Shown here: positions 1 to 35,643 of the stretch, one piece after another
Layout of the letters: each line of letters opens with the position of its first letter
Numbering within the stretch: position 1 is the stretch's first letter
DNA from: a bacterium
GTDB taxonomy: Bacteria > Patescibacteriota > Microgenomatia > UBA8517
Assembly: GCA_030583725.1 (NCBI GenBank)
Contig: CP129472.1
Span: 465,902-529,901, forward strand
DNA: 64,000 bases
Reading direction: 5' to 3'
The notes under the pieces: model-generated
Told to the model about the DNA's origin: nothing
Database searches by the model: none
The model's input: only the letters and a program-made list of their open reading frames with translations
Made by a program: the position numbers and the translations under genes

Positions 1-2943
1 TTATCCTCGACCATATGGGTCAGCTTTAGAATATAACCAACACCAACCACCGTATCTTCCTTAAATTCCTCACCGGTTCTACCATCAATTAACCTGGCCT
101 TACCATTTACTGGCAAGTTGGCTTTTTTAAGTTCATTTACCAAGTCATTCTCTGTAATATGATCAAATACTGGAAATGCTCCTCTTTCGTTATTCTTATG
201 AAGTGCCAAACCAAAGTGGGCCTCTAAAAGCTGTCCCAAGTTCATACGAGAAAGAATTGAAAGTGGAGAAATAATCACATCAACTGGTGTACCATCAGAA
301 AGATACGGCATATCAGATACGGACATTATTTTTGCAATGACACCCTTGTTACCATGTCTTCCTGCAATTTTGTCTCCCACAGTAATTTTTCTTATTTGAG
401 CTACTTTAACTATAATCTTCTCAATAACTCCAGGGCCCAAGTCATCACCCTTACTTCGGCTCAAAATATTTACACCAACCACAATACCTTTCTCTCCGTG
501 AGGAACACGAAGTGAAGTATCTCTAACTTCTCGTGCCTTTTCGCCAAAGATGGCCCTTAACAACCTCTCTTCTGACGTTAATTCAGTTTCACCCTTTGGT
601 GCAATTTTACCAACTAAGATATCATTTGGCCCAACTTCGGCACCAATTACAACGATTCCATCATCAGCCAAATTTGAAAGTTCAGATTCAGAAACATTTG
701 GAATATCCTTTGTTCTTTCTTCTGCTCCTAATTTTGTGTCCACTACCTCAGCATCATATTCCTCGATATGGATTGAGGTTAATAAGTCTTCTTTAACTAA
801 CCTCTCAGAAATTAAGATTGCGTCCTCAAATCCATAACCCCCAAAGGATGTATAGGCCACCATTAAGTTTCGACCAAGTGCCAATTCTCCGTCCTGACTA
901 GCGGGTCCATCGACCAGCAAATCTCCCTCGTTAACTTTGTCACCCGGTTTAACAACTACACGTTGATTGTAGCAGGTTGAATGAGCTGTTTTCTTAAATT
1001 TAACAAGTGAATAAACTTCTTTTTTGCCGTTTTCAATAATTTCAATATCTTCGTTGTTACTAATTTTTTCAAGATCCTCGATGGAGACCTTTTTATCCAG
1101 TTTTATTACTATTTTTTCATTGTCTGCATATTCAACAATACCACTATGCCTTGCCAAAATGTTTCTAATCATTGCTTTTGAAATCTCGGATTCCATGCCA
1201 GTTCCAACAACTGGAGCATCAGGTGCAACCAGTGGCACAGCCTGACATTGCATGTTAGAACCCATCAATGCCCTGTTTCCTTCATCGTGAGCCAAGAATG
1301 GAATTAATGAGGCAGAGGTACCCACCAACTGCCTTGGTGTAATATCTATGTAGTCAACTAAACTTGATGGACCTTCAACAAAGTTACCCATATGTCTTAG
1401 TGGAACTCTGGCGTCAGTTATATATCCATCTTTATCAATACCCACTCCTGAATGGGTAATATTATAAGTTTCTTCATCATCAGCCGTTAAGTAAACGATT
1501 TCATCTAGAATTTTTACCTTTTTACCTTTTTTTTCTACTTTTCTATAAGGTGATTCCAAAAATCCAAACTCATTAACTTTTGCATACAATGATAAATATG
1601 TGACCAAACCAATATTAGGACCCTCTGGGGACCTGACAGGATCTAACCTTCCGTATTGGGAAGAGTTTACGTCTCTAATTGAGAAGGATGCTCTTTCTTT
1701 ATTTATTCCACCAGAACCTAAAACAGAAACTCTTCTTAGATTATCAACTTCAGAAAGTGGGTTTGTGTCATCTAGAATTGTTGACAATTGATTACTTCTA
1801 AAAAATTCATTAAGTGATGAAATTAGTGGTCTGGCGTTAATTAAATTCGAAGGGAGTGGCCTGTCGTCAGCTGATATCAAGCTCATTTTCTCTTTAACTG
1901 ACCTCTCAAGCCTTAATAGTCCTATACGAAATGCGTTAACAGAAACCAACTCTCCAACTCTTCTTAATCTTCGATTTGAAAGATGGTCAATATCATCAAC
2001 TCTTCCTGTACCATTTTGTAAACCAATTAAATACGTAAGTGAAGCAGTGATATCTTTCAAGGTTAGAACGTTTGCAGACTTGTCAGTCCTTGAAAGAGGC
2101 AGTCTTTTTCCTATTTTGTATCTACCTACCTCACCTAAGTCATATCTTCTCTTGTCTAAAAACATATTCTCGAATAAATTTGTGGCGTTTTCAATTAAAA
2201 CAGGTTCACCAGGTCTTAATTTTCTATATATCTCAAGAAGTGCGTCATCTTTTCCTTTTGTGGCATCCTTTGCAAGTGTTGCCTCTATGTATTTATGATC
2301 TTTATCTATATCTACTTCTTTAAAGAAATTGATTATTTCATTTTCACTCTCTAACCCTAAAGCTTTCAAAAATACTGTTGCAAGAACTTTTTTTCTTCTA
2401 TCGATTCTTGCATATATCAAATCATTTTTGTTTGCCTCAAATTCAAGCCATGAACCATGGAGTGGTCTTACTTCTGCTTTGTGTAATAATCTACCTGAAG
2501 TTGGGTCTGCCTCTGCAGAAAAATAAATTCCAGGACTTCTGACAATTTGGTTAATAACAGCTCTCTCAATACCGTTTATGATAAATGTACCCCTAACAGT
2601 CATCTGTGGTAGTTCACCTAAAAACACTTCTTGGCTGACTTCTTTACCTGTTCTTTTATTAATTAATGTGGCTGTAATTTTTAATGGAGTTGCATATGTT
2701 AATCCTTTTTCTTGGGCATAACTTGCAGTGATTGAGGGTTTACCAAGTGAATAATCACCCAACGCTAATTGCCAATTCTTGCCAGTAAAGTCGTCGATCG
2801 GAGATATTGCTTGAAGTTCTTCACCTACACCTTTTTTTAAAAACCAATCCCAAGATTCTCTTTGAACTAATGTCAAATCAAGTTTAGGAAGGTTTTTTTC
2901 TACTTTCCCAAAATTTCGGCGCAAGTTAGTTTTTGATTTCATT
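1..2943 (-). CDS. rpoB: DNA-directed RNA polymerase beta subunit (partial, C-terminus beyond window start)
   Basis: Minus-strand translation from the ATG at 2943 begins MKSKTNLRRNFGKVEKNLPKLDLTLVQRESWDWFL. Near position 1 the same frame gives EDTVVGVGYILKLTHMVEDK, matching the conserved RpoB GYMYMLKLHHLVDDK region. The ORF has no stop inside the window, which is why it is missing from the ORF track. Confidence 0.9.
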
Positions 2944-2997
2944 AAGCTTAGGTGATAGGTGATACAAGATAAGCCTACGTAAGTAGACCTAATGGGG

Positions 2998-3025
2998 ATT
3001 ATATATAAATTTTGATAAGTGTCAA
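2998..3025 (-). promoter_or_regulatory. sigma70-like promoter for rpoB (TTGACA-16-TATAAT)
   Basis: Minus-strand reading: TTGACA (plus coordinates 3020-3025), a 16-nt spacer, then TATAAT (2998-3003). This sits about 50 nt upstream of the rpoB ATG and 11 nt past the mltG stop. Confidence 0.55.
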
Positions 3026-3035
3026 CAAGTAAAAA

Positions 3036-3989
3036 CTATCTTAAGTACCGATTAATATTTTGATTATGTTCATCTAGTGTTCTGGCATAATGAATCTTGC
3101 CACTATTGTCATGGATGTAATACCAGTATTCGCTCTCAACAGAATTAATTACAGCATTAATTGTAGACGCACCAGGATTTGCAATTGGTGCGGGGGGGAG
3201 TCCAAGATTCTTGTATGTATTAAAGGGTGACTCGATACCTTTATCTTGTGCATATGCAGGATCCCAATATTTATTGGTCAAGGATACATTTTTATATTTA
3301 ATATTATCTTTAGCATATTGCAGTGTTGCATCTATTTGTAACGGCCAACCGTTTTCTAATCTTTTATACAAAACTCCAGCAACTACTGGTTTTTCCTCAT
3401 TTGTAAACGTTTCTCTTTCCAAAAGGGAAGCCATGATAACCTGTTCTTTGGTTGCATTCTTTACTTTTTGGTCAAATGTTGTGGTTAATCTATTAACAAC
3501 CTGGGTAGCAGATGCTGACTTGGGAAATAAATAAGTATCGGGATAGAGATAACCTTCTTTACCTACGGTTAATCTTAAAAACTCGTCAATAAAATCTGTT
3601 TCCTTGTTTAAGACGATTGCAAACCTAATTGCAATTTCTTCACGTCTTAAACCCTCAGGAATAGTTACCCAAAATTCTGTCGGACCTTTCTTTAGTCTAT
3701 CAACCATTTCAACCAAACTTAGGTTTTGAGTAAGTTGGAACTCACCTGCTTGGATTTTATTTGTATTATTTGTCAGTTGCACATAGAACTTGAAAGCGAT
3801 ACCACTTCGTATAAGCTTGGCGCTTTCCAAGTTATTACCTATTTGGGCAACCGAAGAACCTTTGTTAATTAAAAAATCAACCTCACCACTATTATCAGAG
3901 ACTGGCAAAAGTAGACCCCTAAAGTAGAAAATAAAAACTGCAACAAGTACGAAAGGTAAAAGAATTACTGTAAGTAGTTTAAATTTCAT
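3036..3989 (-). CDS. mltG: endolytic murein transglycosylase MltG (YceG-like)
   Basis: Motifs YLYPDTYLF, LLERET and GLPPAPIANPG, plus an N-terminal transmembrane segment. The likely true start is the internal Met (MKFKLLTVILL); the track ORF extends to 4046. Confidence 0.8.
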   Translation of the reverse strand: MKFKLLTVILLPFVLVAVFIFYFRGLLLPVSDNSGEVDFLINKGSSVAQIGNNLESAKLIRSGIAFKFYVQLTNNTNKIQAGEFQLTQNLSLVEMVDRLKKGPTEFWVTIPEGLRREEIAIRFAIVLNKETDFIDEFLRLTVGKEGYLYPDTYLFPKSASATQVVNRLTTTFDQKVKNATKEQVIMASLLERETFTNEEKPVVAGVLYKRLENGWPLQIDATLQYAKDNIKYKNVSLTNKYWDPAYAQDKGIESPFNTYKNLGLPPAPIANPGASTINAVINSVESEYWYYIHDNSGKIHYARTLDEHNQNINRYLR

Positions 3990-4176
3990 TAAGAAGTGCA
4001 CGCCTATATTTTTTGGTTTTCTCATTATAAATATAAATCCTACCACACTTGCAAGTTACCATTGTCCCATACTTATGACTTTTACTTTCTGCGTTTGATA
4101 ATGAAACACCACAGCCAACACATTTGCCTTGTGACATTAACCAAGCCTGAATAGGAGCGATTACATTTTTAAGCAT
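3979..4176 (-). CDS. small zinc-ribbon protein (CxxC...CxC)
   Basis: The 65-aa ORF contains CVGCG and CKCG cysteine pairs. It sits between ruvX and mltG, like the small yrzB-type genes in the Firmicutes alaS-ruvX-mltG cluster. Confidence 0.4.
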   Translation of the reverse strand: MLKNVIAPIQAWLMSQGKCVGCGVSLSNAESKSHKYGTMVTCKCGRIYIYNEKTKKYRRALLNEI

Positions 4177-4534
4177 TGTCTAGATATGATTGTAACATAA
4201 TAGTTGCTGCAAATGCATCTTCCATCTCGCGTCGTTTTTTTCTACCCATACCCGATTGAATTGACATAACTTGGGCATCATGTGAACTTAGTGTTTCATC
4301 AAACGTTTCAGCTCTAAATTGTTTAGCAAACTCGTTTTGCTCCTTTGCCATTTCACCCTCTGAAATACCAACAACTACTTTTTCTATTTTTTGCTTTTCA
4401 ATTATCCTTTGAATGTGGGCAATCATTTTATCCCAATCTCTGTAGCGAATTACTTGATATGGTTCAGCAAGTTTGCCATCAGAAACAGCAAGACCTATTT
4501 TTCTTCTACCATAATCAATGCCTAAAAATTTCAT
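4169..4534 (-). CDS. ruvX: Holliday junction resolvase-like RuvX/YqgF
   Basis: The N-terminus FLGIDYGRRKIGLAVSD is the canonical YqgF/RuvX RNase H-fold motif. Length is 121 aa. Confidence 0.85.
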   Translation of the reverse strand: MKFLGIDYGRRKIGLAVSDGKLAEPYQVIRYRDWDKMIAHIQRIIEKQKIEKVVVGISEGEMAKEQNEFAKQFRAETFDETLSSHDAQVMSIQSGMGRKKRREMEDAFAATIMLQSYLDNA

Positions 4535-4554
4535 AATCTTTTTGTGGTTTGGTG

Positions 4555-5238
4555 TTAGCTTACCACTCTTGCCCTAACAATTAAACGTTTTGGATTTCTG
4601 GGGTCTCCTGGTGGGGTACAAGTTACCAGTGTTAAAAACGAATCAGAATTGTTTTGTTCTAAAATCTGAATGTCTGTTGGATATATTTCAAACAGTTCTT
4701 CAACTACAAAATCGTATGAAACACCATCAAATTTAACAAAAATCTGATCACCATTTTTTAAAGTAGGAAGTGTTGAGAATATCGCCATATAATTTTTAGG
4801 GTTATAGAAAATTGGTAGAATTGAATGACCGAAAATTACAGCATTGCCGTTTCTACCCGGCAGGGCTGTTCCAGGATACTGTACTAGGTGCTTGGACAAA
4901 TCTTCACCCCCGATTGCGACAATGGCATCTTCTATTTTTAGTTTCGGGATTGTAATTGTGTAAAAATCTACTTTTGACTCCTCAAAATCTTTTGTGTCAG
5001 CCGTAGGAAACCAGGTTGATGCTTTGGTATAGTCGGTGGGTTCTTTTGTTTCATCTTTTTTCTCTAATACTAAAGGGGATAGAAGGGTGGAATAAGATCT
5101 TGCATTGGTCAGTTGATAAACAACAATGGGCCAAATTGAAACAAACAATATAGTAAGCCCAAAAGCGCTTAATCCAAACGACAATAATTTAATAACTTTT
5201 CTTCTGTGACTAAAATTCATTTTTTTAAAGTAAATCAA
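4555..5238 (-). CDS. sortase (membrane-anchored cysteine transpeptidase)
   Basis: N-terminal transmembrane anchor. The TLVTCTP motif matches the sortase catalytic TLxTC signature, with a downstream Arg (RLIVRARV). Its stop abuts the start of the upstream gene (5238/5239). Confidence 0.75.
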   Translation of the reverse strand: MIYFKKMNFSHRRKVIKLLSFGLSAFGLTILFVSIWPIVVYQLTNARSYSTLLSPLVLEKKDETKEPTDYTKASTWFPTADTKDFEESKVDFYTITIPKLKIEDAIVAIGGEDLSKHLVQYPGTALPGRNGNAVIFGHSILPIFYNPKNYMAIFSTLPTLKNGDQIFVKFDGVSYDFVVEELFEIYPTDIQILEQNNSDSFLTLVTCTPPGDPRNPKRLIVRARVVS

Positions 5239-7302
5239 CTACTCTTCAACGGCAAAACTCACTGTCATTCTTTTGGGTATATGGGGAAGAGTTCCCAGCT
5301 TACCGGGGAATAACGGTTTTATTTTAAACTCTGCCTTAGTAAATCCTGTAATACTAGAGAAGTAGTCCTCGGCAAGTTCAGGGTATTTACCTGCTATTTT
5401 CTTTGCAATTTCACCCTCGTCTATGTCTGGTAACAGATTTGCCGTTACTCTTACATTAAAGAGGTCATCTTCAGCCATGATTTCGTATTCAATCTGATCA
5501 TCTTTTAGAACAAAATTCGTAGGAATCTTGTCATTTAGTATTTCTTTAGATTTGGCTAAGAGTTCATCTTTAGAAATGGATATAATTTTAACATCAAGTT
5601 TCAACGACAATTTGATAGATGTGGCCTCATCACCAACTTTATTACTAAACTGTTCGTCACGAGAAACAATTTCAACTGACGAGTCAATAAGTATCTGATT
5701 GGAATCAAGTTTTTGTGAAATTTGAGATTTTGCGTCATTTAGTAATTCTTCTGTTAACTCATCTAGTATTTTCTTTCTATCGCTTTCACTAACTGCCGAA
5801 ATTTGACGACTTGAACCACCACCAAAACCATCAAGGGAAATGGCATCAACCTCAGCTTTTGGATAATTCCCCACCTTAAATATCTCGTCTTTGGATATGT
5901 TATATTCTGAACCAATACTTCCCGCTTCCACCTCTATTTCTCCAGTTCCAGGATTTGATGGAGACAATGCACCAGAGATAGATGCTGAACTTAAAGTTAC
6001 AAATTTTAAATCTGACGAGGACAACAAAGTACTTCCCGCTGCTAAGTTGATAGGAAAGGCTGTGCCATTTTGAACCTTTACCTTACCTTTTGACTTTTCT
6101 CCAACAGTTTTTGTGCCAGTTGTAGAAATAGTTTTTTCACCACTGACGCTTATCTCATTTTCACTAGTCTTAATACTTGAATCTGACTGTATCTCTATAT
6201 TCTCCTCAATTTGTTTTGGTGAAACATATATGGTCACCACAGCTTTAGGTAAAAACCACCACAAAAGAAAACTTGCCACAACTAAAGTCAGGGCTCCGGA
6301 ACCCGCAACTACCAACATCTTGTTGTTTAAATTTAGTTTAGGCATTTTTATACTAGGCCTACTAAAAGTGGTTAGACCTTTAATTTTATTTTTTAAATCA
6401 GGAAGCTGTATTTTTTGGGTTATTGGAAGATCTGGTTCTTCTTTGACAAAACCCAACTCTTCAGCAGTCAGTTTATTAGGCTCTTGAATGTTTTCAACCT
6501 CTTCTGATTCCAAACTTTCAACAACTGTTTCATCAGGCAGTTGACTGTCTTCAACACCACCAACAGCCCCCAGTTCAGATCCACCAGCTAAGGCAACTGC
6601 AATTATCTTTTTCTCTGGGTCAAAAACTTCTATCTTTGGCGTATGGATAAACTTGCTTTGACCTACTTTTTCCCAATCCGAGTTGTTTAAAATTTCTTTA
6701 ACATCTTCTAGTTCTTGCTCTTTCTGGTTATACAAAACGATCCTAGAAGGAAAATTTTCAACTGTATCTTTTAATCTTGTGAGTCCTTCCATTAAATCAT
6801 CTTCCACCGAAACACTTCTTAAAACGTTTGTAACACCAGATAAAGTTCCCAAATTAAATATTGCAATTTCTATATTCTGGTCACTAAGTCCTAAGACTAA
6901 AGCATTAGTGTCGCCATGATCTTCACTTTTAAGAAAGTGGGAGATAGCTTCAGAAAGTACTACAAAACCAGAGGGAACAAGTGATAGCTTCTCACAAATT
7001 ACTTTTAACTCCTCAAGTTTTTCAGGTTTTATGTTTCCATCTTCTATCCAGTTGTTAGATAAACCGAATACCGTCCTACTGGGATCCATTGACTCTTCAG
7101 GTAAAAACTGTGAACAAGCGGATAGTGAAGTATCAATTGCTTCCAATAAATTGTCTTCCCAACGGGTTGGTGGAGATTTTGCGATAACTTCTACCTTACC
7201 ATCTTTTATTTGCCAGACGGCAGAAGTAATCCATTCCGGCTCAATTAAAAGAGCCCAAAAATTCTCTGTATTAGGTTTTTGTTTTTGAAGAAAGTCCAAC
7301 AT
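5239..7302 (-). CDS. hypothetical bitopic membrane protein (N-terminal cytoplasmic domain possibly FtsA/PilM-like, large S/T-rich ectodomain)
   Basis: 687 aa with a single transmembrane helix (MLVVAGSGALTLVVASFLLWWFL) near residue 340. The N-terminal roughly 250 aa (WALLIEPEWITSAVWQIKDGKVEVIAKSPP...) resemble the start of actin-fold FtsA/PilM-type proteins, but this assignment is tentative. The gene is tightly coupled to the sortase gene. Confidence 0.5.
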   Translation of the reverse strand: MLDFLQKQKPNTENFWALLIEPEWITSAVWQIKDGKVEVIAKSPPTRWEDNLLEAIDTSLSACSQFLPEESMDPSRTVFGLSNNWIEDGNIKPEKLEELKVICEKLSLVPSGFVVLSEAISHFLKSEDHGDTNALVLGLSDQNIEIAIFNLGTLSGVTNVLRSVSVEDDLMEGLTRLKDTVENFPSRIVLYNQKEQELEDVKEILNNSDWEKVGQSKFIHTPKIEVFDPEKKIIAVALAGGSELGAVGGVEDSQLPDETVVESLESEEVENIQEPNKLTAEELGFVKEEPDLPITQKIQLPDLKNKIKGLTTFSRPSIKMPKLNLNNKMLVVAGSGALTLVVASFLLWWFLPKAVVTIYVSPKQIEENIEIQSDSSIKTSENEISVSGEKTISTTGTKTVGEKSKGKVKVQNGTAFPINLAAGSTLLSSSDLKFVTLSSASISGALSPSNPGTGEIEVEAGSIGSEYNISKDEIFKVGNYPKAEVDAISLDGFGGGSSRQISAVSESDRKKILDELTEELLNDAKSQISQKLDSNQILIDSSVEIVSRDEQFSNKVGDEATSIKLSLKLDVKIISISKDELLAKSKEILNDKIPTNFVLKDDQIEYEIMAEDDLFNVRVTANLLPDIDEGEIAKKIAGKYPELAEDYFSSITGFTKAEFKIKPLFPGKLGTLPHIPKRMTVSFAVEE

Positions 7303-12654: not shown

Positions 12655-14298
12655 TCAAACTTCAACAACAATTGGAATAATCATAGGGCTTCGACCTGTT
12701 GTTTTGAAGAAATAACCTTCTAAAAATTTTATAGCGTCTTCTTTAATCTTTTTGGAGTTCAAATTACTGTGTGTTTTTAAGTGTTTCATCAGCCTTTGCA
12801 TTGCGTCATTTAAAAGCCCACCACTAATACCTTCAAACACAAATCCCTTAGTTACAATTTCTGGATTACCCAAGACCTTACCACTTTTAGTTGCTTTAAA
12901 AACTACAACTGCCATACCTTGCTTACCTAAAAGTGTTCTGTGTTCTAGGACAGTCTTTCCAATGTCCCCAATCCCCAAACCATGAACCATAACTTCTTTA
13001 ACTTTTACTTTTTGACCCCTTCTGGCTGTTCCATTTTCAAATTCTATAGAATCTCCAGGTTTTAATTTAAATACTTGAGATTTTTGCTTACCTGTTGAAA
13101 CTACAAGTTTTTCATATGAATGCATATGTTTTATAGTTCCACCTGTTGGTATAAAATATTTAGGTTTTGCTATATCAAAAAGCATTTTGATGTCTTCCTG
13201 TCCACCATGACCAGAAACATGTAAGCCTTCTTTTAAGTCATAATAGTGAACATCGACACCGCGGTCTATAAGTTCATCTATTATAAAATCTTGGCTCTCT
13301 TTTGAATAAGGTGGGGCAGGGTTTGCTGAAAAAATAAACATATCTCCATCAGAAATTGAAAATCTATCATCGTCGTCTGTAGCTAATCTGTAAACAGAAC
13401 TGCCAACTTGGCCATAACACCCAGCCACAATATATAATAGGTCTTTTGGATGCATTCTTTTGGCCTTTTTAAGATCTACAACTTGGCTATCCAAATATTT
13501 TAAATACCCAAGCTTATGTGCAGATTCTGTTTTTTGTTGAATAGATCTTCCAACAAAAACTACTTTTCTATTTAACTTAACTGCAACATTGATCATTTGT
13601 TGAAACCTGCCAATTGATGATGACATGGCACTCATAAATAGTGCGTTTTTGGCATTCTTAGCAATATTTAAAATTCTTTCTTCAACAGGAACAGCGCTTG
13701 GTGCAAATCCTGGTTCGTTTGACCCTAAACAATCAGAAATTAAACAAATCACATTACCCTCTGCAAGTTTTCTGGCCCTATCTAGGTCAAAAGAGTGACC
13801 GTCAACAGACTCTTGATCAATTTTGTGTTCAGGGACATGCATAATTTTCCCCTCTGGTGTTTCTATTGCAAAACCAACAGTGTCTGGAACCGAGTGAGTA
13901 ACTTTAAATGGAGATATCTTAAATGAACCTATTTGGAAAGTATCCATATCCGAATTGAAAGTATTGATTTTAAAGTCAGTAATTCTATTATCTCTAAATT
14001 TCTCTTTTAAAAATTCTGCAACCAGAGGAGCGCAGTAAATTGGTGCATTTACCTGTTTTAATAAAAATGGTAATGCTCCAATATGATCCTCATGGCCTTG
14101 AGACAAAACGATAGCTTTTAGTTTGTGTTTATTTTTAACAACATATGAAAAGTCTGGAATAACAAGGTCAACTCCAGGCATTTCTAAATCAGGAAAACCT
14201 ACACCACAATCAAGGATAAACATTTCATCCTTGTATTCGTAGACATTTAAGTTTTCTGTAACCCCTGTCGTTCCAGAGAGTGCTATGAAGCGTACCAT
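12655..14298 (-). CDS. rnj: ribonuclease J (metallo-beta-lactamase/beta-CASP)
   Basis: HEDHIGALP (the HxHxDH motif), the beta-CASP region and a C-terminal domain. Length is 547 aa. Confidence 0.85.
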   Translation of the reverse strand: MVRFIALSGTTGVTENLNVYEYKDEMFILDCGVGFPDLEMPGVDLVIPDFSYVVKNKHKLKAIVLSQGHEDHIGALPFLLKQVNAPIYCAPLVAEFLKEKFRDNRITDFKINTFNSDMDTFQIGSFKISPFKVTHSVPDTVGFAIETPEGKIMHVPEHKIDQESVDGHSFDLDRARKLAEGNVICLISDCLGSNEPGFAPSAVPVEERILNIAKNAKNALFMSAMSSSIGRFQQMINVAVKLNRKVVFVGRSIQQKTESAHKLGYLKYLDSQVVDLKKAKRMHPKDLLYIVAGCYGQVGSSVYRLATDDDDRFSISDGDMFIFSANPAPPYSKESQDFIIDELIDRGVDVHYYDLKEGLHVSGHGGQEDIKMLFDIAKPKYFIPTGGTIKHMHSYEKLVVSTGKQKSQVFKLKPGDSIEFENGTARRGQKVKVKEVMVHGLGIGDIGKTVLEHRTLLGKQGMAVVVFKATKSGKVLGNPEIVTKGFVFEGISGGLLNDAMQRLMKHLKTHSNLNSKKIKEDAIKFLEGYFFKTTGRSPMIIPIVVEV

Positions 14299-14324: not shown

Positions 14325-14924
14325 TCACGAAAAAATAATTATTCTTGTTAGAGTTTCTTTTAAAGCAAGAAAATCTTGTTTTTCTGCCTCTAGAATCTTC
14401 CCATTTCTTAAAGATGCTGCTGGATGATACATAGGTATAACAGTTATCTCTTTACTGTTCCACACAATATTGTGTTCTTTACCATGAACCTGAGATATGA
14501 ATACTTCAGGCAAAAACTTTGCCATGGAAAACCTGCCTAATGTAATTATCACTTTTGGGTCAATTATTTTAATAATCTCGTCTAAATACTTACCATAGCT
14601 TTCAATTTCATTAGGTAGTGGATCTCTGTTTTCTGGAGGTCTATGATGAACAATGTTTGTAATGAAAACTTTTTTTCGCTCGAGTCCTGCAAGTAATAGT
14701 AATTTATCCAACAATTTTCCCGCTTGACCAACGAAAGGCAAACCTTGTAGGTCTTCCTGTCTCCCTGGGCCCTCACCCACAAAAAGAATTTTTGCCTCAG
14801 TGTTCCCAGAACCAAAAACTAACTTATTTGCAATTTTTTTAAGTGGGAGGGTTTCATCCTTTTCCATTTCATCTTTAAGATTGTGGAGTTTTTTGTAATT
14901 ATTCATATTTAATACCAAAGTCAA
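14325..14924 (-). CDS. uracil-DNA glycosylase, family 4
   Basis: GEGPG and FVGQAGKLL motifs typical of family-4 UDG, plus an HPAASLRN-type C-terminal motif. Confidence 0.8.
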   Translation of the reverse strand: MTLVLNMNNYKKLHNLKDEMEKDETLPLKKIANKLVFGSGNTEAKILFVGEGPGRQEDLQGLPFVGQAGKLLDKLLLLAGLERKKVFITNIVHHRPPENRDPLPNEIESYGKYLDEIIKIIDPKVIITLGRFSMAKFLPEVFISQVHGKEHNIVWNSKEITVIPMYHPAASLRNGKILEAEKQDFLALKETLTRIIIFS

Positions 14925-15513
14925 TTAATTTTTCTTTGAAGTTAGTAAAGTTATCATACAGAAGTGTATTAAAACCCATTTTGCTTGCTTGAACTGTATT
15001 CTTTTCTCGATCATCTACGAATAAACTTTCCTCAGGGATTATCTTTGATCGATCTAATAATATTTGAAATATATCCTGATTTGGTTTTGAAACACCAACC
15101 TCACAAGAGGCAATAATCATTTCAAAAAAATTGTCTAGACCATATTTTTCCCTTTTAAACTCGTAACCCTCTTTGAATATGTTGGTTAAAGCAAGTATTT
15201 TGTATTTTCTCTTCAGATTCGGTAATATATCGTACGGTTCTAAAGTACGAGTCCTAGATTTGTATATTTTAAAAAGCTCTATCGACAAACCCCCATCTAC
15301 CTTTCCAGATATTTCTTTCTGAAAATTATCGTAAAACTGAAAAATTGTCATTCTTCCCTCTCCCACTTCGTGCCAGTATTTAACCCAAGCGTCATGAAGA
15401 ACTTGATCGGATACTCCATACCTTTCCTTTATTTCCTTATTATCAAACAAGACCCCAACGTCATCATCTGTTAGTACAACTCCACCAAAGTCAAGAACAA
15501 TATTTTTAATCAT
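14899..15513 (-). CDS. HAD-superfamily hydrolase
   Basis: The N-terminus IVLDFGGVVL is the HAD motif I DxG pattern. Length is 204 aa. Confidence 0.65.
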   Translation of the reverse strand: MIKNIVLDFGGVVLTDDDVGVLFDNKEIKERYGVSDQVLHDAWVKYWHEVGEGRMTIFQFYDNFQKEISGKVDGGLSIELFKIYKSRTRTLEPYDILPNLKRKYKILALTNIFKEGYEFKREKYGLDNFFEMIIASCEVGVSKPNQDIFQILLDRSKIIPEESLFVDDREKNTVQASKMGFNTLLYDNFTNFKEKLIDFGIKYE

Positions 15514-15935
15514 ATATTTATGAATTCTACCATTTTGGTTTTGGTATCAAAAATTGCAAAATTTATTCCATTTTCCAAAGCTCCAGGATTTATCATATTT
15601 CCTATCTGTCTTTGTTGATGGTTGTGTCCACAAAAAATAACATCAAATTTATCTTTATCTGTTTTTACTTTTTTAATATTATGGACTAAACCTATTTTAA
15701 TATTATCAATTTCAAGTTCTACAAATTCTTTAAAATCAAATCTTGGATCTATATCTGCATTACCCAAACAAGAATATAATGGAATACCACAATCTGTAAC
15801 TATTTTTATGCTGTCAAAGTTATACCAATCTCCAGTATGAATAACTGCAGAGGCATTAATTTTTTTTGCAAAGCCCATAACATGTTTTATATTTGCAATA
15901 TTTCCATGGGAGTCACCAATAATTAAAAGTTTCAC
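15510..15935 (-). CDS. metallophosphoesterase (YfcE-like)
   Basis: MKLLIIGDSHGN, GDWYN and GHNHQQ motifs of calcineurin-like phosphoesterases. Confidence 0.7.
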   Translation of the reverse strand: MKLLIIGDSHGNIANIKHVMGFAKKINASAVIHTGDWYNFDSIKIVTDCGIPLYSCLGNADIDPRFDFKEFVELEIDNIKIGLVHNIKKVKTDKDKFDVIFCGHNHQQRQIGNMINPGALENGINFAIFDTKTKMVEFINI

Positions 15936-15947
15936 AAAGTTATTCTA

Positions 15948-16997
15948 CTACAACGGAAGGAATTCTTTTACATTTGCAGTAGTGACATGAAATGTTGTTC
16001 CTTTTCCTTCAACAATTGCTCTTGCAACTTTTCTGACAACTCCGCCAATTGTTCTTTCCATTGTACGAATTCCAGCATCATATCCAAAAGGTCTGACTAG
16101 GTTTGCCCAAACTTCATCATCAATTTGTAGGGTTTCTGGGGTTAACCCTGCATCTTTTAAAGCTTTGGGGAAAACATATCTTTTTCCAATGGTTATTTTT
16201 TCTTCATCAGAATAGCTAGGCATCATAATTGGCTCAATTCTGTCCATAACTGCGGTTGAAATGTTTGTTGTATTGTTCGCTGTAGCTATAAAGATACACT
16301 CAGAAAGGTCAAATGGATAATCTATATAATGATCTGAAAACGCATGATTTTGCCCAGGGTCTAAAAGTTCAACCAACACACCCATAATAGAAGCTCTGCC
16401 CTGATCTGTTACCCTGTCAATTTCATCAAGAAGTATTACAGAGTTTTTAAATTGTGTATCTTTCATTGCTTTAATAATTTTTCCAGGTTCTGCTTCAGGA
16501 TGCATCTTGGACTGACCACGCAGGTCAAGAGGGTCTCCCATACCTCCAAATGGAATACGCGCTATTTTTCTTCCCAGGGCTTCAGCAATGGAAAAGGCAA
16601 TTGTTGTTTTTCCAGTACCTACAAGACCTACAAAGCAAAGAATTGGAGCACGATATATATCTTTTGCTTCTCCTTTTTCTTGTTTTAGTTTCATTACAGC
16701 CAAATATTCCAAAACCCTTGATTTAATATCTTCCAGACCATAGTGTTTTTCATCCAGGATTTTCTTGGCATTTACTAAATCTAAGTTGTCCTGTGATTTT
16801 TGAGTCCATGGCAGACTTGTAATCCAACCAATGTAACTATCCATTCTGTCATACTCAGGCAAGAATGTTGGAGAGTTAGTTAATTTTTTAAGTTGATCCA
16901 AACGTATAGAAACAGATTTTTTTAAATCTTCAGGTACAGAAGAACTGGCAACTTTAGTTGACAGAATATCAATTTCTTGAAAGGCAGTATCTGACAT
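15948..16997 (-). CDS. Lon-family AAA+ ATPase module without N-terminal or protease domains
   Basis: HYGLEDIKSRVLEYLAV..ILCFVGLVGTGKTT....LLDEIDRV aligns with the E. coli Lon ATPase (HYGLERVKDRILEYLAV..ILCLVGPPGVGKTS..LLDEIDKM). The ORF ends at the close of the AAA+ module. The next gene starts 12 nt later and is a phosphoesterase. Confidence 0.7.
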   Translation of the reverse strand: MSDTAFQEIDILSTKVASSSVPEDLKKSVSIRLDQLKKLTNSPTFLPEYDRMDSYIGWITSLPWTQKSQDNLDLVNAKKILDEKHYGLEDIKSRVLEYLAVMKLKQEKGEAKDIYRAPILCFVGLVGTGKTTIAFSIAEALGRKIARIPFGGMGDPLDLRGQSKMHPEAEPGKIIKAMKDTQFKNSVILLDEIDRVTDQGRASIMGVLVELLDPGQNHAFSDHYIDYPFDLSECIFIATANNTTNISTAVMDRIEPIMMPSYSDEEKITIGKRYVFPKALKDAGLTPETLQIDDEVWANLVRPFGYDAGIRTMERTIGGVVRKVARAIVEGKGTTFHVTTANVKEFLPL

Positions 16998-17072: not shown

Positions 17073-19418
17073 TTATCTATCCCCGCCTTGATCAGTCTGA
17101 AAGTATCTTGAAGTTGGGAAATGAGGTCCACTGGATCTACCATTTTGGCCCCTGTCTCCACCTCTATCTACATTACCCCTGTCTCTGTTAAATCCACCAG
17201 TCCTTGGTCCTCTTGAAAATCCTCCTGATTGAGGTCTTCCACCTCTATCCCCACCACCTCTAAATCCTCCACTTTGTGGCCTTCCACCTCTGTCATTACC
17301 TCTATCCCCACCACTTCTTCTTTCTTCTTTTGGTTTGTCGGTTGCAGGATCCATTCTCATAGATAAATTTATTCTGCCCATTTCATCAACTTCTTTAACC
17401 CTGACTTGTACTTTTTGCCCAATTGTAACAACATCATTAGCGTCAGCTACATATCCTTCCGCCATATCTGAAACGTGAACCATTCCATCTTTTCCAGGTA
17501 AAATATTTACAAATGCTCCAAATGGCATAATTCTTACCACTTCACCTTCATAAATTTCACCAGATGTTGCCTCTTTACCCAATCCTTCAACATACTCAAT
17601 TGCCTTTGTAATTCCGTCTTTTTCAATCCCTGAAATTGCCACACTACCATCATCTTCAACATCAATGTGTGTCCCTGTATCTGCCATCAACTTCTTAATA
17701 GCTTTTCCTCCAGGACCAATTAATTCTCCAATCTTATCGACTGGAATTTTAACCATAGTAATCTTTGGTGCATACTTACTTACTTCAGCTCGAGGTTTAT
17801 CAATTGCAGAAACTACTGACTTGAGCATTTCTGCGCGTCCCGTTTTTGCCTGTTCAAGTGCCTTTTCTAAAATACTTGGTGTTAAAGTTAATGTTTTAAC
17901 ATCTAGTTGAATTGCAGTGATTCCTTTTTCTGTTCCAGCAACCTTAAAGTCCATATCGCCGTTAAAGTCCTCAATTCCCATAATGTCAGAGAGAATTGCA
18001 ACATCTTTTCCTTCAATAATTAAACCCATTGCAATTCCTGAAACAGGAGCCTTAATTGGAACTCCCGCATCCATTAAAGCTAGGGATGAACCACAAACAG
18101 ATGCCATTGAAGTTGAACCATTTGAACTCATAACTTCTGAAACAACACGAATTGCATATGGAAATACTTCTTCTGTTGGTAAAACCGGCATTAATGCTTT
18201 TTCAGCAAGAGCTCCATGACCTATTTCGCGTCTACCCACTCCACCAACTCTTCCCACTTCACCTGTAGTAAAAGGTGGCATTGAATAATGATGCATATAT
18301 CTTTTCTCTTGTTCACCTTCTGCCGTTTCTAGAAGTTGTCCCATCTGAGTTGAACCTAATGTAGCAATAGATAATACTTGTGTTTGACCTCTAGTAAATA
18401 GTCCTGAACCATGTGTTCTAGGTAAAAAACTGACCTCTGAGTTTAATTTTCTAATTTCTGTTAATTTTCTTCCGTCTGGTCTTATTCCTTTTTTCAAGAT
18501 TTGTTCCCTGATGTAATCTTTTTTAAGATGATCAATTATTTCAGTCACCCATTTTTTGTCTTCAATTTTTTCAAACTTTTCTGAAACTGCTTCAACTAAT
18601 AATTTAAACTCATCTGAAGATCCTTCATGGGTGGCCATATTTTTGACAAGTGCTGGTATCTGGTCTTTGACTAATTTCAATACTTCTTTTTCTAACTCTT
18701 TTGATGGTTTGTCTTCAACATAAGTATCTCTTGTAACCCCAACTTCTTTTGCAAAATCTTCAAGTGCAGAGTTAATTGTTTGAGCTTCATCAAATGCCAT
18801 TTTTACACCGTCAACAACTTGTTTTTCACTTACTTCTTTTGCTCCAGTTTCAATCATTAGAACTGCATCTTTAGTAGATGAAACAACTAAGTCTAAAATT
18901 GATTCTGAAAGTTCAGTATTTGTAGGATTTACAATGTATTTATCGTCTTTAAGCCCTAAATTAACAACCCCAACAGGACCAAGCCACGGAAGATTACTTG
19001 TGTGTACTGCGGCTGAAGCTGCAATAGCACCTACCATTGACGGCATATTTTCACCATCAACAGAAAGAACAGAAATAATTATCTGTACTTCTTTTTTATA
19101 AGTTTTTGGGAAGAGTGGTCTAATTGACCTATCAATAAGTCTTGCTACTAAAATTTCTTCATCTGTTGGTCGACCATCTCTTTTGACCCATCTTGATCCT
19201 TTAATTCTTCCACCTGCATATAATTTTTCTTGGTATTCAACAGATAATGGAAAATAATCTAGTTCTTGTTTTAATGGTGCTGATGTAACTGTTGCCAAAA
19301 CAACAGTCTCTCCCATTTTAACCAACACAGCACTATCCGCTTGTTCTGCTAGTACCCCTGTGGTTAATGTAATTTCTTTTCCACCTAATTTGAATGTCTT
19401 AACTAATCTTTTATTCAT
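17073..19418 (-). CDS. pnp: polynucleotide phosphorylase with C-terminal RGG/Gly-Arg-rich tail
   Basis: Two RNase PH domains, then KH and S1 domains. The last roughly 95 aa are Gly/Arg/Asp-rich (GGDRGNDRGGRPQSGGFRGGGDRGGRPQSGGF...). Confidence 0.9.
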   Translation of the reverse strand: MNKRLVKTFKLGGKEITLTTGVLAEQADSAVLVKMGETVVLATVTSAPLKQELDYFPLSVEYQEKLYAGGRIKGSRWVKRDGRPTDEEILVARLIDRSIRPLFPKTYKKEVQIIISVLSVDGENMPSMVGAIAASAAVHTSNLPWLGPVGVVNLGLKDDKYIVNPTNTELSESILDLVVSSTKDAVLMIETGAKEVSEKQVVDGVKMAFDEAQTINSALEDFAKEVGVTRDTYVEDKPSKELEKEVLKLVKDQIPALVKNMATHEGSSDEFKLLVEAVSEKFEKIEDKKWVTEIIDHLKKDYIREQILKKGIRPDGRKLTEIRKLNSEVSFLPRTHGSGLFTRGQTQVLSIATLGSTQMGQLLETAEGEQEKRYMHHYSMPPFTTGEVGRVGGVGRREIGHGALAEKALMPVLPTEEVFPYAIRVVSEVMSSNGSTSMASVCGSSLALMDAGVPIKAPVSGIAMGLIIEGKDVAILSDIMGIEDFNGDMDFKVAGTEKGITAIQLDVKTLTLTPSILEKALEQAKTGRAEMLKSVVSAIDKPRAEVSKYAPKITMVKIPVDKIGELIGPGGKAIKKLMADTGTHIDVEDDGSVAISGIEKDGITKAIEYVEGLGKEATSGEIYEGEVVRIMPFGAFVNILPGKDGMVHVSDMAEGYVADANDVVTIGQKVQVRVKEVDEMGRINLSMRMDPATDKPKEERRSGGDRGNDRGGRPQSGGFRGGGDRGGRPQSGGFSRGPRTGGFNRDRGNVDRGGDRGQNGRSSGPHFPTSRYFQTDQGGDR
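17076..17360 (-). repeat. tandem nucleotide/peptide repeats encoding the PNPase RGG tail
   Basis: The peptide DRGGRPQSGGF is duplicated. The nucleotide string ccttccacctct...atccccacc recurs. Confidence 0.5.
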
Positions 19419-20017: not shown

Positions 20018-20947
20018 TTAACTTAAACTAGTTCCCGTAAAAATCTTTGGTTCAGACCATGCGGCTGGAATTTCTTGGTTTAATTCCATTTCTGCTTCTT
20101 CTGGTGTCATTTGTTTTCCTTTGGAGGCCTCTGCAAAAATAGGTTCTGGTGTCTTACTAATTGTTTGTACTTGAGCAAAAGGTTTATTTGGTATTGATCC
20201 ATTTGGATAATTTTTGGCAGGAATAATTTTTGGCATTCTTTTTCCACCAAGTTTAAGGAGTTCTGCAACAATTTCAAACGTCTCCGCTGTTACCTCACTA
20301 CTTTGAAAACCCTTACTTTGTTCTTCAATGCCGATAAGTAAGTTTGTGGCAATGTCTTGGTCAACTACTAATGCACTTTCTTTGATTAAACTAGCAACAA
20401 TTTCTGAAGTGGAAGATGCAGGCCTTGCATATGACAAAACAGACAAGTCACTTGAAGTTATTTCTAAAAGTCTTGTCCCTATATGAACCATTTTTGTCTT
20501 TTGTAACTCTTCTCTTTTTGTTTCTGGAAAGTGTGAGTCATTAGCCCCACCCATTAAAATTACTAGATCTCCAGATACTCCAGAATAGTCAACTTTAACC
20601 TGCTCTACTGTGGGAGAGTTAAAACCTGATTTTGGACTAATTGTTAACTTAAATTGTCCATTATTGATGTCATAACTAACTTTATCCACACTATTGGCAT
20701 CATAATTAACAAGGCTAATATCTAAGTTTTTACTACCTATATCTGAAGCTATTTTATCAACACCAACCAACCTTGAAAATTCTGCGGTCATTGGGGCAGA
20801 ACAGGCGATCACGGCCTTTTTACCAGAGGCATTGAGTGATAAATACAACGAAAGGGCACCTGAAACCTGATCTAAAAATGGTTTATTTGGCAACAAAATT
20901 AAAATTTCGTTGGCAGAAGTTATAAGTGAAGTAAAACTATTTTCCAT
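20018..20947 (-). CDS. DHH/DHHA1-family-like protein with degenerate catalytic motifs (NrnA-like position after infB)
   Basis: 309 aa. Motif-I-like LPNKPFLDQVSGALSLYLSL and GGANDSHF resemble the NrnA DHH motifs, but the canonical Asp/His residues are replaced. Confidence 0.4.
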   Translation of the reverse strand: MENSFTSLITSANEILILLPNKPFLDQVSGALSLYLSLNASGKKAVIACSAPMTAEFSRLVGVDKIASDIGSKNLDISLVNYDANSVDKVSYDINNGQFKLTISPKSGFNSPTVEQVKVDYSGVSGDLVILMGGANDSHFPETKREELQKTKMVHIGTRLLEITSSDLSVLSYARPASSTSEIVASLIKESALVVDQDIATNLLIGIEEQSKGFQSSEVTAETFEIVAELLKLGGKRMPKIIPAKNYPNGSIPNKPFAQVQTISKTPEPIFAEASKGKQMTPEEAEMELNQEIPAAWSEPKIFTGTSLS

Positions 20948-32542: not shown

Positions 32543-33871
32543 ATGATTAAAAAGTATAAATTACCCACCATAATTGGCATTGTGGTTTTGATTTTTGGAA
32601 TTATTGCTGGAGTTTTTCTAATAAACTCAAGGCAAGTTTTTAAGTTAGGCGCAAACATAGATGCCATTCCTAAAAATGTTAGGTTTACAAACATAACTAA
32701 CTCAAGCTTCACTGTAACTTGGACTACAGATATTGAAAGCACTGGGTTTGTCAAATGGGGAACCAGTGAGCTAACTCTTAGTAAAGTGGCACTTGGCGAA
32801 GGAATTGGAAAAAACTTTGTCCACTCTGCCACAATAATGGGTATAAACCCAAACACAAAAATTTATTTAAAAATAAATTCTAACAGCAATGACTATGACA
32901 ATAATGGTATTCCTTGGCAAGAAACAACAGAAAATATTGTAACAACCTCAGACCAAAATTTAATTGCTTCAGGAAATATTTTAAAACCAGATGCATCAAC
33001 ACCCGCGGTTTCAATTGTTTATTTAACAATTAATGGAATCGTGCTTTCTGCTATTTCATCACAAGGAGGATCATATGTAATACCAATATCAACCTACATA
33101 TCAAACCTACCAGATACCACCCCCATTGAAATATCTGTTCAGGGTGGTCAAAACTCGCTAGCCCAAGCTGTAATTTACCCCAAATATATTAAATCTGTCC
33201 CAACCATTGTACTAGGAAGAACATATGATTTTAGAACTTTGCAAGAGGATATGTCAGGAAACTTACCAGAAAGTAATCTGACCGTTCCTGAGTCTGTAGA
33301 AGTTTCATCAAGATTTGAAGTTACAAAGTCAGAAACTACAAAAACTGTTGATAATGTCCTAGTTGAATCAATTGAAGAAGGGGAAATTATAACAACAGTT
33401 AATCCAGAATTCTTTGGTTCTGGACCAAAAAACACAGAAATTGAAGTAATCGTTGAATCAGAAATGCAATCACAAACAATTACCGTTTCTTCAAATGGAA
33501 GTTGGAAGTGGAGTCCTCCAAATGACCTAGCACCTGGAGAACATAAACTCACTGTTAAATGGAGAGACGCTTCTGGAATTTTAAGAACTATCACAAGAAC
33601 TTTTGTAGTTAGTGCAGCAGAAGGGCCTGCTTTTGAAGCAACACCATCGGCATCCTTAAGTCCTAGTCCAACATCTACAGCTATTGCTACAACTGTTGCA
33701 TCACCTACTGCCAGCTCATCATCAACGCCAATTTCAGCAACACCCACAGCAACACTTCCACCAACACCAGAAACTGGAAGCTTGACAGCTACCATTGGCT
33801 TATTCATAATGGGTATAGGAATACTTTTGTCATCTATTTTTATTTGGAACAAACAATATGCCCAAGGATAA
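32543..33871 (+). CDS. cell-surface protein: N-terminal signal/anchor, FN3-like domain, S/T/P-rich stalk, C-terminal PETG plus transmembrane sorting signal
   Basis: FTVTWTTD, a fibronectin-III-like strand. The C-terminus is ...SPSPTSTAIATTVASPTASSSSTPISATPTATLPPTPETGSLTATIGLFIMGIGILLSSIFIWNKQYAQG: a motif, a hydrophobic helix and a short basic tail. Confidence 0.6.
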   Translation: MIKKYKLPTIIGIVVLIFGIIAGVFLINSRQVFKLGANIDAIPKNVRFTNITNSSFTVTWTTDIESTGFVKWGTSELTLSKVALGEGIGKNFVHSATIMGINPNTKIYLKINSNSNDYDNNGIPWQETTENIVTTSDQNLIASGNILKPDASTPAVSIVYLTINGIVLSAISSQGGSYVIPISTYISNLPDTTPIEISVQGGQNSLAQAVIYPKYIKSVPTIVLGRTYDFRTLQEDMSGNLPESNLTVPESVEVSSRFEVTKSETTKTVDNVLVESIEEGEIITTVNPEFFGSGPKNTEIEVIVESEMQSQTITVSSNGSWKWSPPNDLAPGEHKLTVKWRDASGILRTITRTFVVSAAEGPAFEATPSASLSPSPTSTAIATTVASPTASSSSTPISATPTATLPPTPETGSLTATIGLFIMGIGILLSSIFIWNKQYAQG

Positions 33872-35039: not shown

Positions 35040-35052
35040 TAGTGATAAATAT

Positions 35053-35643
35053 ATGAAAAATAAATTTACAATGATAGGGATAGTCTTAACAACATTAATC
35101 TTAGCTGGTGTTGCCATATTTACAGCACTTAGACTATATGAAACAAGAGACACAGCTGTTGCACCAAACGTACCATCAAGTAGACCTGCTGCTCAAGTTC
35201 AGCCAACTGAGCAAGCATCAAGTTGTAATTTAAGTTTTACTATCCAAACGTCAACGGCTACACCTACAGCCACTGGGTCAGCAACACCAACTGCAACAGG
35301 ATCAGCAACTCCTACGGCTACTGCAACAGCAACTTCCACAGCAACCGCTACTGCTACAGCTTCACCTGTTCCACTATGTAATAGTAGTTGTACATCAAAC
35401 ACTCAGTGTCCAAGTGGCTTGATGTGTTACATCCCAAGTGGAGCAACAGCTGGAAATTGTAGAAACACTCAATGTCTATCATCAACCAACTGTGTTTGTT
35501 CTACAGTTACAGCCTCACCAAGTACTACTGCTACTACATCCTCAGAACCAACACTTCCAGAAGTTGGTACAACATGGCCAACAATACTTGGTACAGCTGT
35601 TGGAATATTAATCTTAATTGGAAGTTTGCTTCTAGCTTTATAA
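35053..35643 (+). CDS. surface protein: signal/anchor, TPTATGSA tandem repeats, Cys-rich module, C-terminal LPEVG plus hydrophobic helix
   Basis: The C-terminus is ...SEPTLPEVGTTWPTILGTAVGILILIGSLLLAL. There are 10 Cys in CxxxC-type spacing. The T/A/P-rich linker repeats. Confidence 0.55.
   Translation: MKNKFTMIGIVLTTLILAGVAIFTALRLYETRDTAVAPNVPSSRPAAQVQPTEQASSCNLSFTIQTSTATPTATGSATPTATGSATPTATATATSTATATATASPVPLCNSSCTSNTQCPSGLMCYIPSGATAGNCRNTQCLSSTNCVCSTVTASPSTTATTSSEPTLPEVGTTWPTILGTAVGILILIGSLLLAL
35256..35366 (+). repeat. in-frame tandem repeats encoding (TPTATGSA)n / TATA-rich linker
   Basis: acacctacagccactgggtcagca and acaccaactgcaacaggatcagca are repeated, followed by gctactgcaacagca variants. 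Confidence 0.5.

Follow-up and report, generated by a model that had tools for sequence, protein, structure and literature searches.

The 64,000-nucleotide stretch analysed here (hereafter the window; positions 465,902 to 529,901 of contig CP129472.1) carries on its minus strand a complete gene for a short relative of the LonA proteases. We coined the name sLon for the product of this gene and its relatives. The first-pass annotation, which was made from the sequence alone, had described the gene as a stand-alone Lon AAA+ module without the N-terminal substrate domain and without the S16 protease domain, followed after 12 nucleotides (nt) by an unrelated phosphoesterase gene. Both statements were borne out, the first by the domain and homology searches described below and the second by the identification of the downstream neighbor as a Metallophos_2 gene. 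Locations of sLon, its domains and motifs, and the relevant neighboring genes are given in Table 1.

Table 1. Features of sLon and neighboring genes in the window (aa, amino acids; coordinates are window positions)
Feature	Position	Strand	Remarks
sLon, complete coding sequence	15948..16997	minus	349 aa, ATG start; LonA-type three-helix bundle and AAA+ module, without N domain and without S16 protease domain
N-terminal three-helix bundle (LonA NTD3H), aa 1-62	16812..16997	minus	alignment to E. coli Lon 245-310; AlphaFold2 secondary structure
AAA+ alpha/beta nucleotide-binding subdomain, aa 120-258	16224..16640	minus	Pfam AAA, PF00004, 1.1e-16
Walker A GLVGTGKT, aa 124-131	16605..16628	minus	K130/T131 invariant; clade-specific GL for canonical GPPG
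Rewritten pore loop 1, RGQSKMHPEAEPGK, aa 160-173	16479..16520	minus	canonical RGHRRTY(I/V)GAMPG(R/K)
Walker B VILLDEID, aa 187-194	16416..16439	minus	D191/E192 invariant
Diverged pore-loop-2 region, RVTDQGRASIMGV, aa 195-207	16377..16415	minus	canonical K(M)SSDFRGDPASA
Sensor-1 Asn242 (E. coli N473)	16272..16274	minus	invariant
Arginine finger Arg253 (E. coli R484)	16239..16241	minus	invariant
Lon-type lid (alpha) subdomain, aa 281-332	16002..16157	minus	Pfam Lon_lid, PF22667, 1.8e-12
Sensor-2 Arg311 (E. coli R542), inside lid	16065-16067	minus	invariant
pnp (PNPase, 781 aa), upstream neighbor	17073..19418	minus	conserved; ends 75 nt before sLon ATG
Metallophos_2 (YfcE-like phosphoesterase, 141 aa), downstream neighbor	15510..15935	minus	conserved; 12 nt after sLon stop
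RNase J	12655..14298	minus	three genes downstream of sLon in the window; adjoins sLon in divergent lineages L025 and L027

The Pfam matches in sLon are AAA and Lon_lid, with no others. Against TIGR00763 (the NCBIfam 'lon' model, an equivalog for endopeptidase La) the protein aligned to model positions 255 to 569 of 795 only, and its score of 330.4 bits, against a cutoff of 608, did not reach the equivalog threshold; the score for NF008053 (240 against a cutoff of 891) was also below threshold. The top PDB matches were the AAA+ regions of LonA proteases, among them B. subtilis Lon (3m6a, 1.6e-77), and the region of E. coli Lon matched in this search was residues 245-565. In alignment, sLon spans E. 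coli Lon residues ~245 to 579: it starts at the equivalent of residue ~245 and its chain ends exactly at the lid/protease boundary (TAG stop codon at 15948-15950), which agrees with the earlier placement of the end of the open reading frame (ORF). The blocks by which the Lon ATPase core had first been recognized (HYGLE, ILCFVG, GKT and LLDEID) are present, except that the last reads LLDEIDR and not LLDEIDK as had been stated.

The predicted helices of the N-terminal bundle occupy aa 4-17, 23-38 and 45-60 in the AlphaFold2 model. Residues Y55, I56 and W58 of the bundle are invariant in an alignment of 35 sequences, and Y55 and W58 align with Y294 and W297 of E. coli Lon, two bundle residues discussed by Shin et al. 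(PMC7239648). The model, a monomer with a mean predicted local distance difference test (pLDDT) score of 72.9, superposes with the AAA+ modules of LONP1, Y. pestis Lon and E. coli Lon at a template modeling (TM) score of about 0.74. A conserved EFLP sequence at the C-terminus was considered as a possible HbYX-like docking motif, and was rejected as the end of the lid helix, equivalent to the canonical D(Y/F)LG. Taken together, sLon is almost certainly a stand-alone AAA+ module derived from LonA. In the databases its relatives are labeled 'ATP-dependent Lon protease', 'Lon protease' or 'AAA family ATPase'.

Every residue required for ATP binding and hydrolysis is present in sLon. K130, T131, D191, E192, N242, R253 and R311 are kept in all 121 sequences of the sLon family, and in 24 or 25 of 25 sequences from a wider clade of protease-less proteins described below. 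Their equivalents in E. coli Lon include K362, E424, N473, R484 and R542 (PMC9569914). Since an arginine finger acts in trans, the retention of Arg253 implies an oligomeric ATPase site. The first-pass annotation had allowed that this copy might have degraded ATPase motifs and had proposed a check of the Walker B and sensor residues; Walker A, Walker B, sensor-1, the arginine finger and sensor-2 were all found intact throughout the family.

A homology search of 5.8 billion proteins gave 7412 matches to sLon. The best 120 of these are clusters at 73-93% identity with a length of 348-349 aa, the one exception being 370 aa long, and no Lon_C domain was found in any of these 120. When one genome per species was scanned, 17 sLon loci were located, mostly labeled Candidatus Woesebacteria, Microgenomates or Patescibacteria and including the complete genome CP011214.1 (Ca. 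Woesebacteria GW2011_GWF1_31_35). Comparison with 10 orthologues by the Nei-Gojobori method gave ratios of nonsynonymous to synonymous substitution (dN/dS) of 0.05-0.09, with the synonymous sites close to saturated. Over the entire protein, 148 of 349 columns (42%) are invariant in the 35-sequence alignment. The gene is under strong purifying selection, and the comparison with orthologues that had been proposed earlier found both length and motifs conserved in the family. Five of the 17 loci, with sLon genes 85-93% identical to the Woesebacteria gene, are labeled 'uncultured Gammaproteobacteria' (L005, L008, L009 and L012) or 'Candidatus Nanoarchaeia archaeon' (L021); these are probably mis-binned or mislabeled contigs from the candidate phyla radiation (CPR).

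The absence of two of the three LonA domains could be taken to mean that sLon is a functionless, truncated remnant of lon or an assembly artefact, and a decay product was among the options first put forward. This explanation is refuted by the dN/dS values together with the near-constant length in at least 120 clusters and the intact catalytic residues. The presence of sLon in many independent assemblies, one of them a complete genome, and the short gaps to its neighbors also argue against it, and we assign it virtually no probability.

The missing domains were sought in the window and in related loci. When full-length E. coli Lon (a query whose motif numbering agrees with PMC9569914) was compared with the whole window by tblastn, matches were limited to residues 245-579. 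Hidden Markov models (HMMs) built from 106 Lon protease domains (Lon_C) and 75 Lon N domains were then run, with filters off, against all stop-to-stop ORFs of 40 aa or more, read in six frames, from the window and from 21 related loci (the latter to about 10 kb around sLon); no match was better than E=1. No full-length Lon was found in these sLon-bearing sequences by either search. Nor did a Pfam scan of the larger ORFs of the window reveal a ClpP, HslV, FtsH or S16 peptidase, and no Lon_C gene lies beside sLon among the called genes of six further loci (L022-L027). Nor is there space for domain relics in the intergenic gaps, which measure 75 and 12 nt. A frameshifted or neighboring protease relic is rejected on the strength of the negative tblastn and profile searches, and the downstream frameshift that the first-pass annotation had considered as a means of restoring a protease domain was not found.

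The clade-specific substitutions of sLon are concentrated in pore loops 1 and 2. The canonical pore loop 1, RGHRRTY(I/V)GAMPG, is replaced in the sLon family by RGQSKMHPEAEPG, so that the core reads S-K-M-H-P-E-A-E in place of RRTY-I/V-G-A-M. By E. coli numbering, Tyr398 has become His166, Ile399 Pro167, Gly400 Glu168 and Met402 Glu170. Position 398 is His in 120 of the 121 family sequences, position 399 is Pro, Ala or Ser, and position 400 is Glu without exception. The aromatic-hydrophobic-Gly motif found in pore loop 1 of processive AAA+ unfoldases (Y398-I399-G400 in Lon) is absent from sLon. In the substrate-bound structure of Y. pestis Lon, Y398 and I399 form a pincer that grips the polypeptide; the I399A substitution blocks degradation with little effect on ATP hydrolysis, and R395 and R396 are held by E458 (PMC7239648). 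The R395 position is Ser in sLon, and the residue aligned with E458, Asp226, is invariant. Pore loop 2, which comprises residues 428-434 in E. coli LonA (PMC9569914), is also diverged. It should be noted that 17 of the 23 columns from aa 151 to 173 are invariant, as against 42% of columns overall, which indicates that pore loop 1 has not been released from selection. Both pore loops have been rewritten to conserved, acidic, non-aromatic sequence, and thus re-purposed rather than relaxed. The earlier suggestion of an ATP-dependent unfoldase is weakened by the replacement of the Tyr-Ile/Val-Gly grip with His-Pro-Glu, which had gone unnoticed.

Further proteins without a P (protease) or N domain, 348 to 669 aa in length, were found by an exhaustive HMMER search of representatives at 50% identity; they include P0125, P0127, P0135, P0139, P0141, P0143-P0148, P0155, P0163, P0166, P0167 and P0195. 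Members of this wider clade have in common a Walker A sequence of the form GLxGxGKT, a pore loop 1 ending in (D/E)-A-E-P-G, and a chain that ends at the lid boundary. Among the best 150 of the 50%-identity representatives, no clade member had a P domain. Position 400 is D or E in 21 of 25 sequences and position 402 is E in 20 of 25, with the Tyr position variable (H, R, F, S, E, Q, N, D or K). Of 168 Lon AAA+ modules placed in a neighbor-joining tree, the 19 protease-less ones of the short type grouped together in one clade with no canonical member inside it. This test of monophyly is partly circular, as the 19 modules were picked by their signature. When P0167, the deepest member, was used to seed another homology search, forms of 344-372 aa were recovered on contigs of up to 855 kb named Woesebacteria, Woykebacteria or Microgenomates.

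The longer members of the clade carry N- or C-terminal extensions of low-complexity sequence rich in Gln, Pro, Ser and Asn, in which no Pfam, Lon_N or Lon_C signal was detected. The possibility that these are degenerate N or P domains was rejected on account of their composition. Gln/Pro-rich extensions (of up to ~325 aa) or Ser/Asn-rich extensions are seen in P0141 / P0272 (L025, 2471-4582), P0125, P0135, P0145, P0195 and P0166, and are reminiscent of prion-like or condensate-forming regions.

An ATPase that ends precisely at the boundary between the A (ATPase) and P domains, with its ATPase residues and arginine finger intact, might be one half of a split Lon, its ring docking on an S16 (or other) peptidase ring whose gene lies in another part of the genome, as in ClpX-ClpP and HslU-HslV. 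The division of ATPase and peptidase between different subunits is well established among hetero-oligomeric AAA+ proteases (PMC9569914), and a separately encoded protease partner had been proposed in the first-pass annotation. This arrangement is nevertheless unlikely in our estimation. No Lon_C domain was found in the window, in the profile search of the 21 loci or among the called genes of the six further loci, and none of the clade members among the best 150 representatives has a P domain. The translocating pore-loop motif that a protease-feeding motor needs has been lost across the clade, and the Lon family is itself patchy in CPR bacteria, where it is found in 911 genomes, as against the roughly 1985 in which universal families occur (Meheust et al. 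2019, Suppl. Data 1). A seed search with the Lon_C domain of a probable CPR Lon, P0194, returned fragments of canonical Lon only and gave no link, and no names of CPR bacteria came up when the clusters of canonical Lon representatives were looked up.

Full-length Lon is encoded by some probable CPR bacteria (the context of P0194; Meheust et al. 2019, Suppl. Data 1), and sLon might in principle be an accessory or regulatory subunit that co-assembles with canonical LonA or caps it, in mixed hexamers or as a stacked second ring, and modulates substrate choice. There are natural Lon proteases in which two or three tandem Lon-type AAA+ modules precede a single protease domain, some of the extra modules having degenerate pore loops, so that extra Lon AAA+ rings can evidently be useful. 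Against such a role, no full-length Lon was seen in the window or the 21 loci, the identity of sLon to canonical modules is only ~40% and it groups in a clade of its own, and the tandem proteins come from other kinds of organisms, with none of their modules bearing the full sLon signature. We consider an accessory subunit improbable.

The tandem-module proteins (P0121-P0140, P0150-P0162, P0186, P0219 and P0257, none of them in the window) are 900-1700 aa long, with AAA and Lon_lid in each module, a single Lon_C and no recognizable Lon N domain. Several have N-termini resembling signal peptides or transmembrane segments, and the gene for P0123 was called on a bacterial contig of 283 kb. On the contig of P0194 (L028), the alpha subunit of DNA polymerase III is called in pieces of 549, 142 and 769 aa (1488-5928) and many genes lack a Pfam match; this may reflect an alternative genetic code, like that of Gracilibacteria/Absconditabacteria, read with code 11.

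When the surroundings of sLon were compared, the order hrcA-grpE-dnaK-dnaJ-nusA-infB-x-rpsO-pnp-sLon-phosphoesterase-UDG-RNase J-FtsK was found in the window and in four contigs (L001-L004) with a 74%-identical homologue. In the window a gene for a HAD-family hydrolase (14899-15513, minus strand) separates the phosphoesterase gene from the UDG gene and shares a few nt with each; it is absent from this place in L001-L004. Gene order is variable in the more divergent lineages: PNPase-sLon-RNase J-x-FtsK in L025; DUF3352-sLon-RNase J in L027; rpsO-pnp, four genes, then sLon-pilM...FtsK in L023; and M16-M16-phosphoesterase (reversed)-sLon-M23 in L022. In L024 groEL-groES diverge from sLon, and in L026 no recognizable pattern was seen. 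A conserved partnership with the neighboring metallophosphoesterase was considered and set aside, as the metallophosphoesterase beside the divergent sLon of L022 is unrelated in sequence. A scan for promoters and terminators gave counts equal to the shuffled expectation. With PADLOC, sLon gave weak, generic AAA matches only (the best being DolB, 1.6e-08), with no stretch passing alone; an anti-phage defence AAA+ or Lon-like protein such as BrxL was rejected on the basis of the lack of a defence-model match and the housekeeping gene context.

The PNPase encoded next to sLon in the window has Pfam domains up to aa 688 of 781, followed by a C-terminal tail of ~90 aa (nt ~17073-17351, minus strand) of Arg/Gly-rich low-complexity sequence. 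This tail, which follows the S1 domain, ends in a conserved ...SGPHFPTSR... motif in the window, L001 (7593-9956), L007 and L012, and a similar Arg/Gly-rich tail is present in the divergent lineage L025 (1-2376). In L023, where pnp and sLon are not neighbors, the PNPase is 697 aa long and lacks the tail.

These observations could be read to mean that sLon is a dedicated ATP-driven remodeller of the CPR RNA-decay machinery, the acidic and non-aromatic His-Pro-Glu-Ala-Glu pore engaging disordered, Arg/Gly-rich tails such as that of PNPase and so assembling, disassembling or regulating a PNPase/RNase J complex or condensate. Several hints point this way. In L025 sLon lies directly between pnp and rnj, in L027 it is directly upstream of rnj, and in Woesebacteria it comes right after pnp, rnj being a few genes further downstream. 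The PNPase has its tail in loci in which pnp adjoins sLon and lacks it in L023, in which the two are apart. Finally, long N-terminal extensions of Gln/Pro-rich, low-complexity sequence are found in some sLon homologues. So specific a role is, in our judgement, a long shot. The pnp...rnj...ftsK frame is also that of Firmicutes and Actinobacteria (the B. subtilis and M. tuberculosis gene orders), and may be inherited synteny rather than a functional operon.

The same setting among genes for nucleic-acid enzymes (pnp, UDG, RNase J and FtsK) would suit an ATPase whose target is the nucleoid or RNA and not protein, and which has kept the DNA- or RNA-binding capacity that the ATPase/alpha domain of LonA is reported to possess; PDB 6n2i, a structure of the AAA+ domain of E. 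coli Lon, was deposited as 'DNA-binding ATP-dependent protease La'. Each subunit has, however, gained two acidic residues in its pore loops, which is unfavorable for nucleic-acid threading, no nucleic-acid-binding domain was detected by Pfam, and the gene order may, as noted, be ancestral. We think it improbable that nucleic acid is the substrate.

Other regions of the window contain ORFs that merit mention. A 309-aa ORF between infB and rpsO (20018-20947, minus strand), the usual rbfA/truB slot, has no Pfam match and is syntenic with an unannotated 305-aa gene in L001. Pfam matches are also lacking for ORFs of 196-687 aa at 5239-7302 (minus), 33858-35643 (plus), 38070-40396 (plus) and 51613-53106 (plus). 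Two UvrD-family helicase genes lie near an RmuC gene, with FemAB-family genes between them (41354-43183, plus; 45010-47877, minus; 48543-49469, minus), and one of the helicases is fused to a PD-(D/E)XK nuclease (AddA/AddB-like).

The reading that we favor, at a probability of about one half, is that sLon is a LonA-derived AAA+ ATPase uncoupled from proteolysis, a re-specialized remodeller and not a canonical unfoldase. It would be a functional, vertically inherited ATPase of tiny, uncultivated bacteria, Candidatus Woesebacteria and related Microgenomates (Patescibacteria/CPR), that has permanently lost the N-terminal substrate-recognition and S16 protease domains; its N-terminal three-helix bundle, nucleotide-binding subdomain and Lon lid are retained. 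As judged from its sequence, sLon would still form a ring and hydrolyse ATP, and would not use the Tyr-Ile pincer of Lon to thread polypeptides into a degradation chamber. Its role may be that of a protease-independent, chaperone-like remodelling ATPase acting on particular clients. The acidic pore suggests that such clients are basic; they might be the RNA-decay enzymes encoded around sLon.

A number of points weigh against this interpretation. Both the oligomeric state and the ATPase activity of sLon are predictions, and isolated AAA+ fragments of LonA are poor at both oligomerisation and ATP hydrolysis when the P domain is missing, so that a stand-alone sLon ring is not guaranteed. The confidence of the AlphaFold2 model is low precisely in the pore loops. 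In the wider clade P0135, P0141 and P0145 have Phe at the Tyr position, and some threading ability may persist in them. The searches for a partner covered the window and the related loci, a point in favor of the split arrangement, as a protease acting in trans may be encoded elsewhere. The link with RNA-decay genes may be simply inherited gene order.

In the searchable literature we found no description of a protease-less Lon clade and no paper linking Lon with CPR, Patescibacteria or Woesebacteria. For the AAA+ specialist a motor-only Lon would be a mild surprise, and one that gives testable predictions. Lon is defined as a single chain joining ATPase and protease; a widespread clade consisting of the motor only would be a natural experiment, in which the capabilities of a Lon AAA+ ring without proteolysis could be seen. 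It is relevant, too, to the question of how CPR bacteria, whose genomes measure about 0.8 Mb, achieve protein or RNA-protein quality control with so small a set of tools. As a practical matter, the genes labeled 'ATP-dependent Lon protease' or 'AAA family ATPase' here should not be taken for proteases.

The three-helix bundle, AAA+ alpha/beta subdomain and Lon lid are common to sLon and the LonA proteins (E. coli Lon, B. subtilis LonA 3m6a, Y. pestis Lon 6on2 and human LONP1), to which it is 34-38% identical with TM scores of 0.7-0.76, and the Walker A and B motifs, sensor-1 Asn, arginine finger and sensor-2 Arg are at the same positions. The LonA proteins have in addition a LON substrate-binding N domain (PF02190) and an S16 Ser-Lys protease domain (PF05362), both of which sLon lacks. 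Walker A is GPPGxGKT in LonA and GLxGxGKT in sLon; in pore loop 1, Tyr-Ile/Val-Gly with flanking Arg-Arg corresponds to His-Pro-Glu with Ser-Lys, and pore loop 2 is diverged. By the N domain, the P domain, the equivalog score and the pore-loop motif, four tests of LonA membership, sLon falls outside LonA; by its Lon-type AAA+ module with a Lon lid and the catalytic set K362, D423/E424, N473, R484 and R542 (E. coli numbering), it falls inside. The recognized Lon subfamilies (A, B, C and BA) all carry A and P domains in one chain (PMC9569914), whereas sLon has no P domain. LonC and LonB/LonBA resemble sLon as variants of the Lon architecture in which one activity is altered or lost. LonC, the Lon-like protease of Meiothermus taiwanensis, retains its protease beside an ATPase-dead AAA-like domain (PMC3391209). 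It is in this respect the mirror image of sLon, in which the ATPase motifs are kept and the protease is absent.

Proteolytically inactive homologues of AAA+ proteases that serve as motors or chaperones include chloroplast FtsHi and inactive yeast Pim1/Lon, which aids complex assembly. Like sLon, these represent AAA+ protease lineages kept for an ATPase function without proteolysis, but they retain a dead protease domain and canonical pore loops, whereas in sLon the domain is deleted and the loops are rewritten. Non-threading or specialized AAA+ rings without aromatic pore loops are known in p97 D1 and NSF D2. They too combine an ATP-binding ring module with non-aromatic pore loops; each, however, forms one of the two rings of a classical-clade protein, whereas sLon is a single module of the HCLR clade (Lon), encoded alone.

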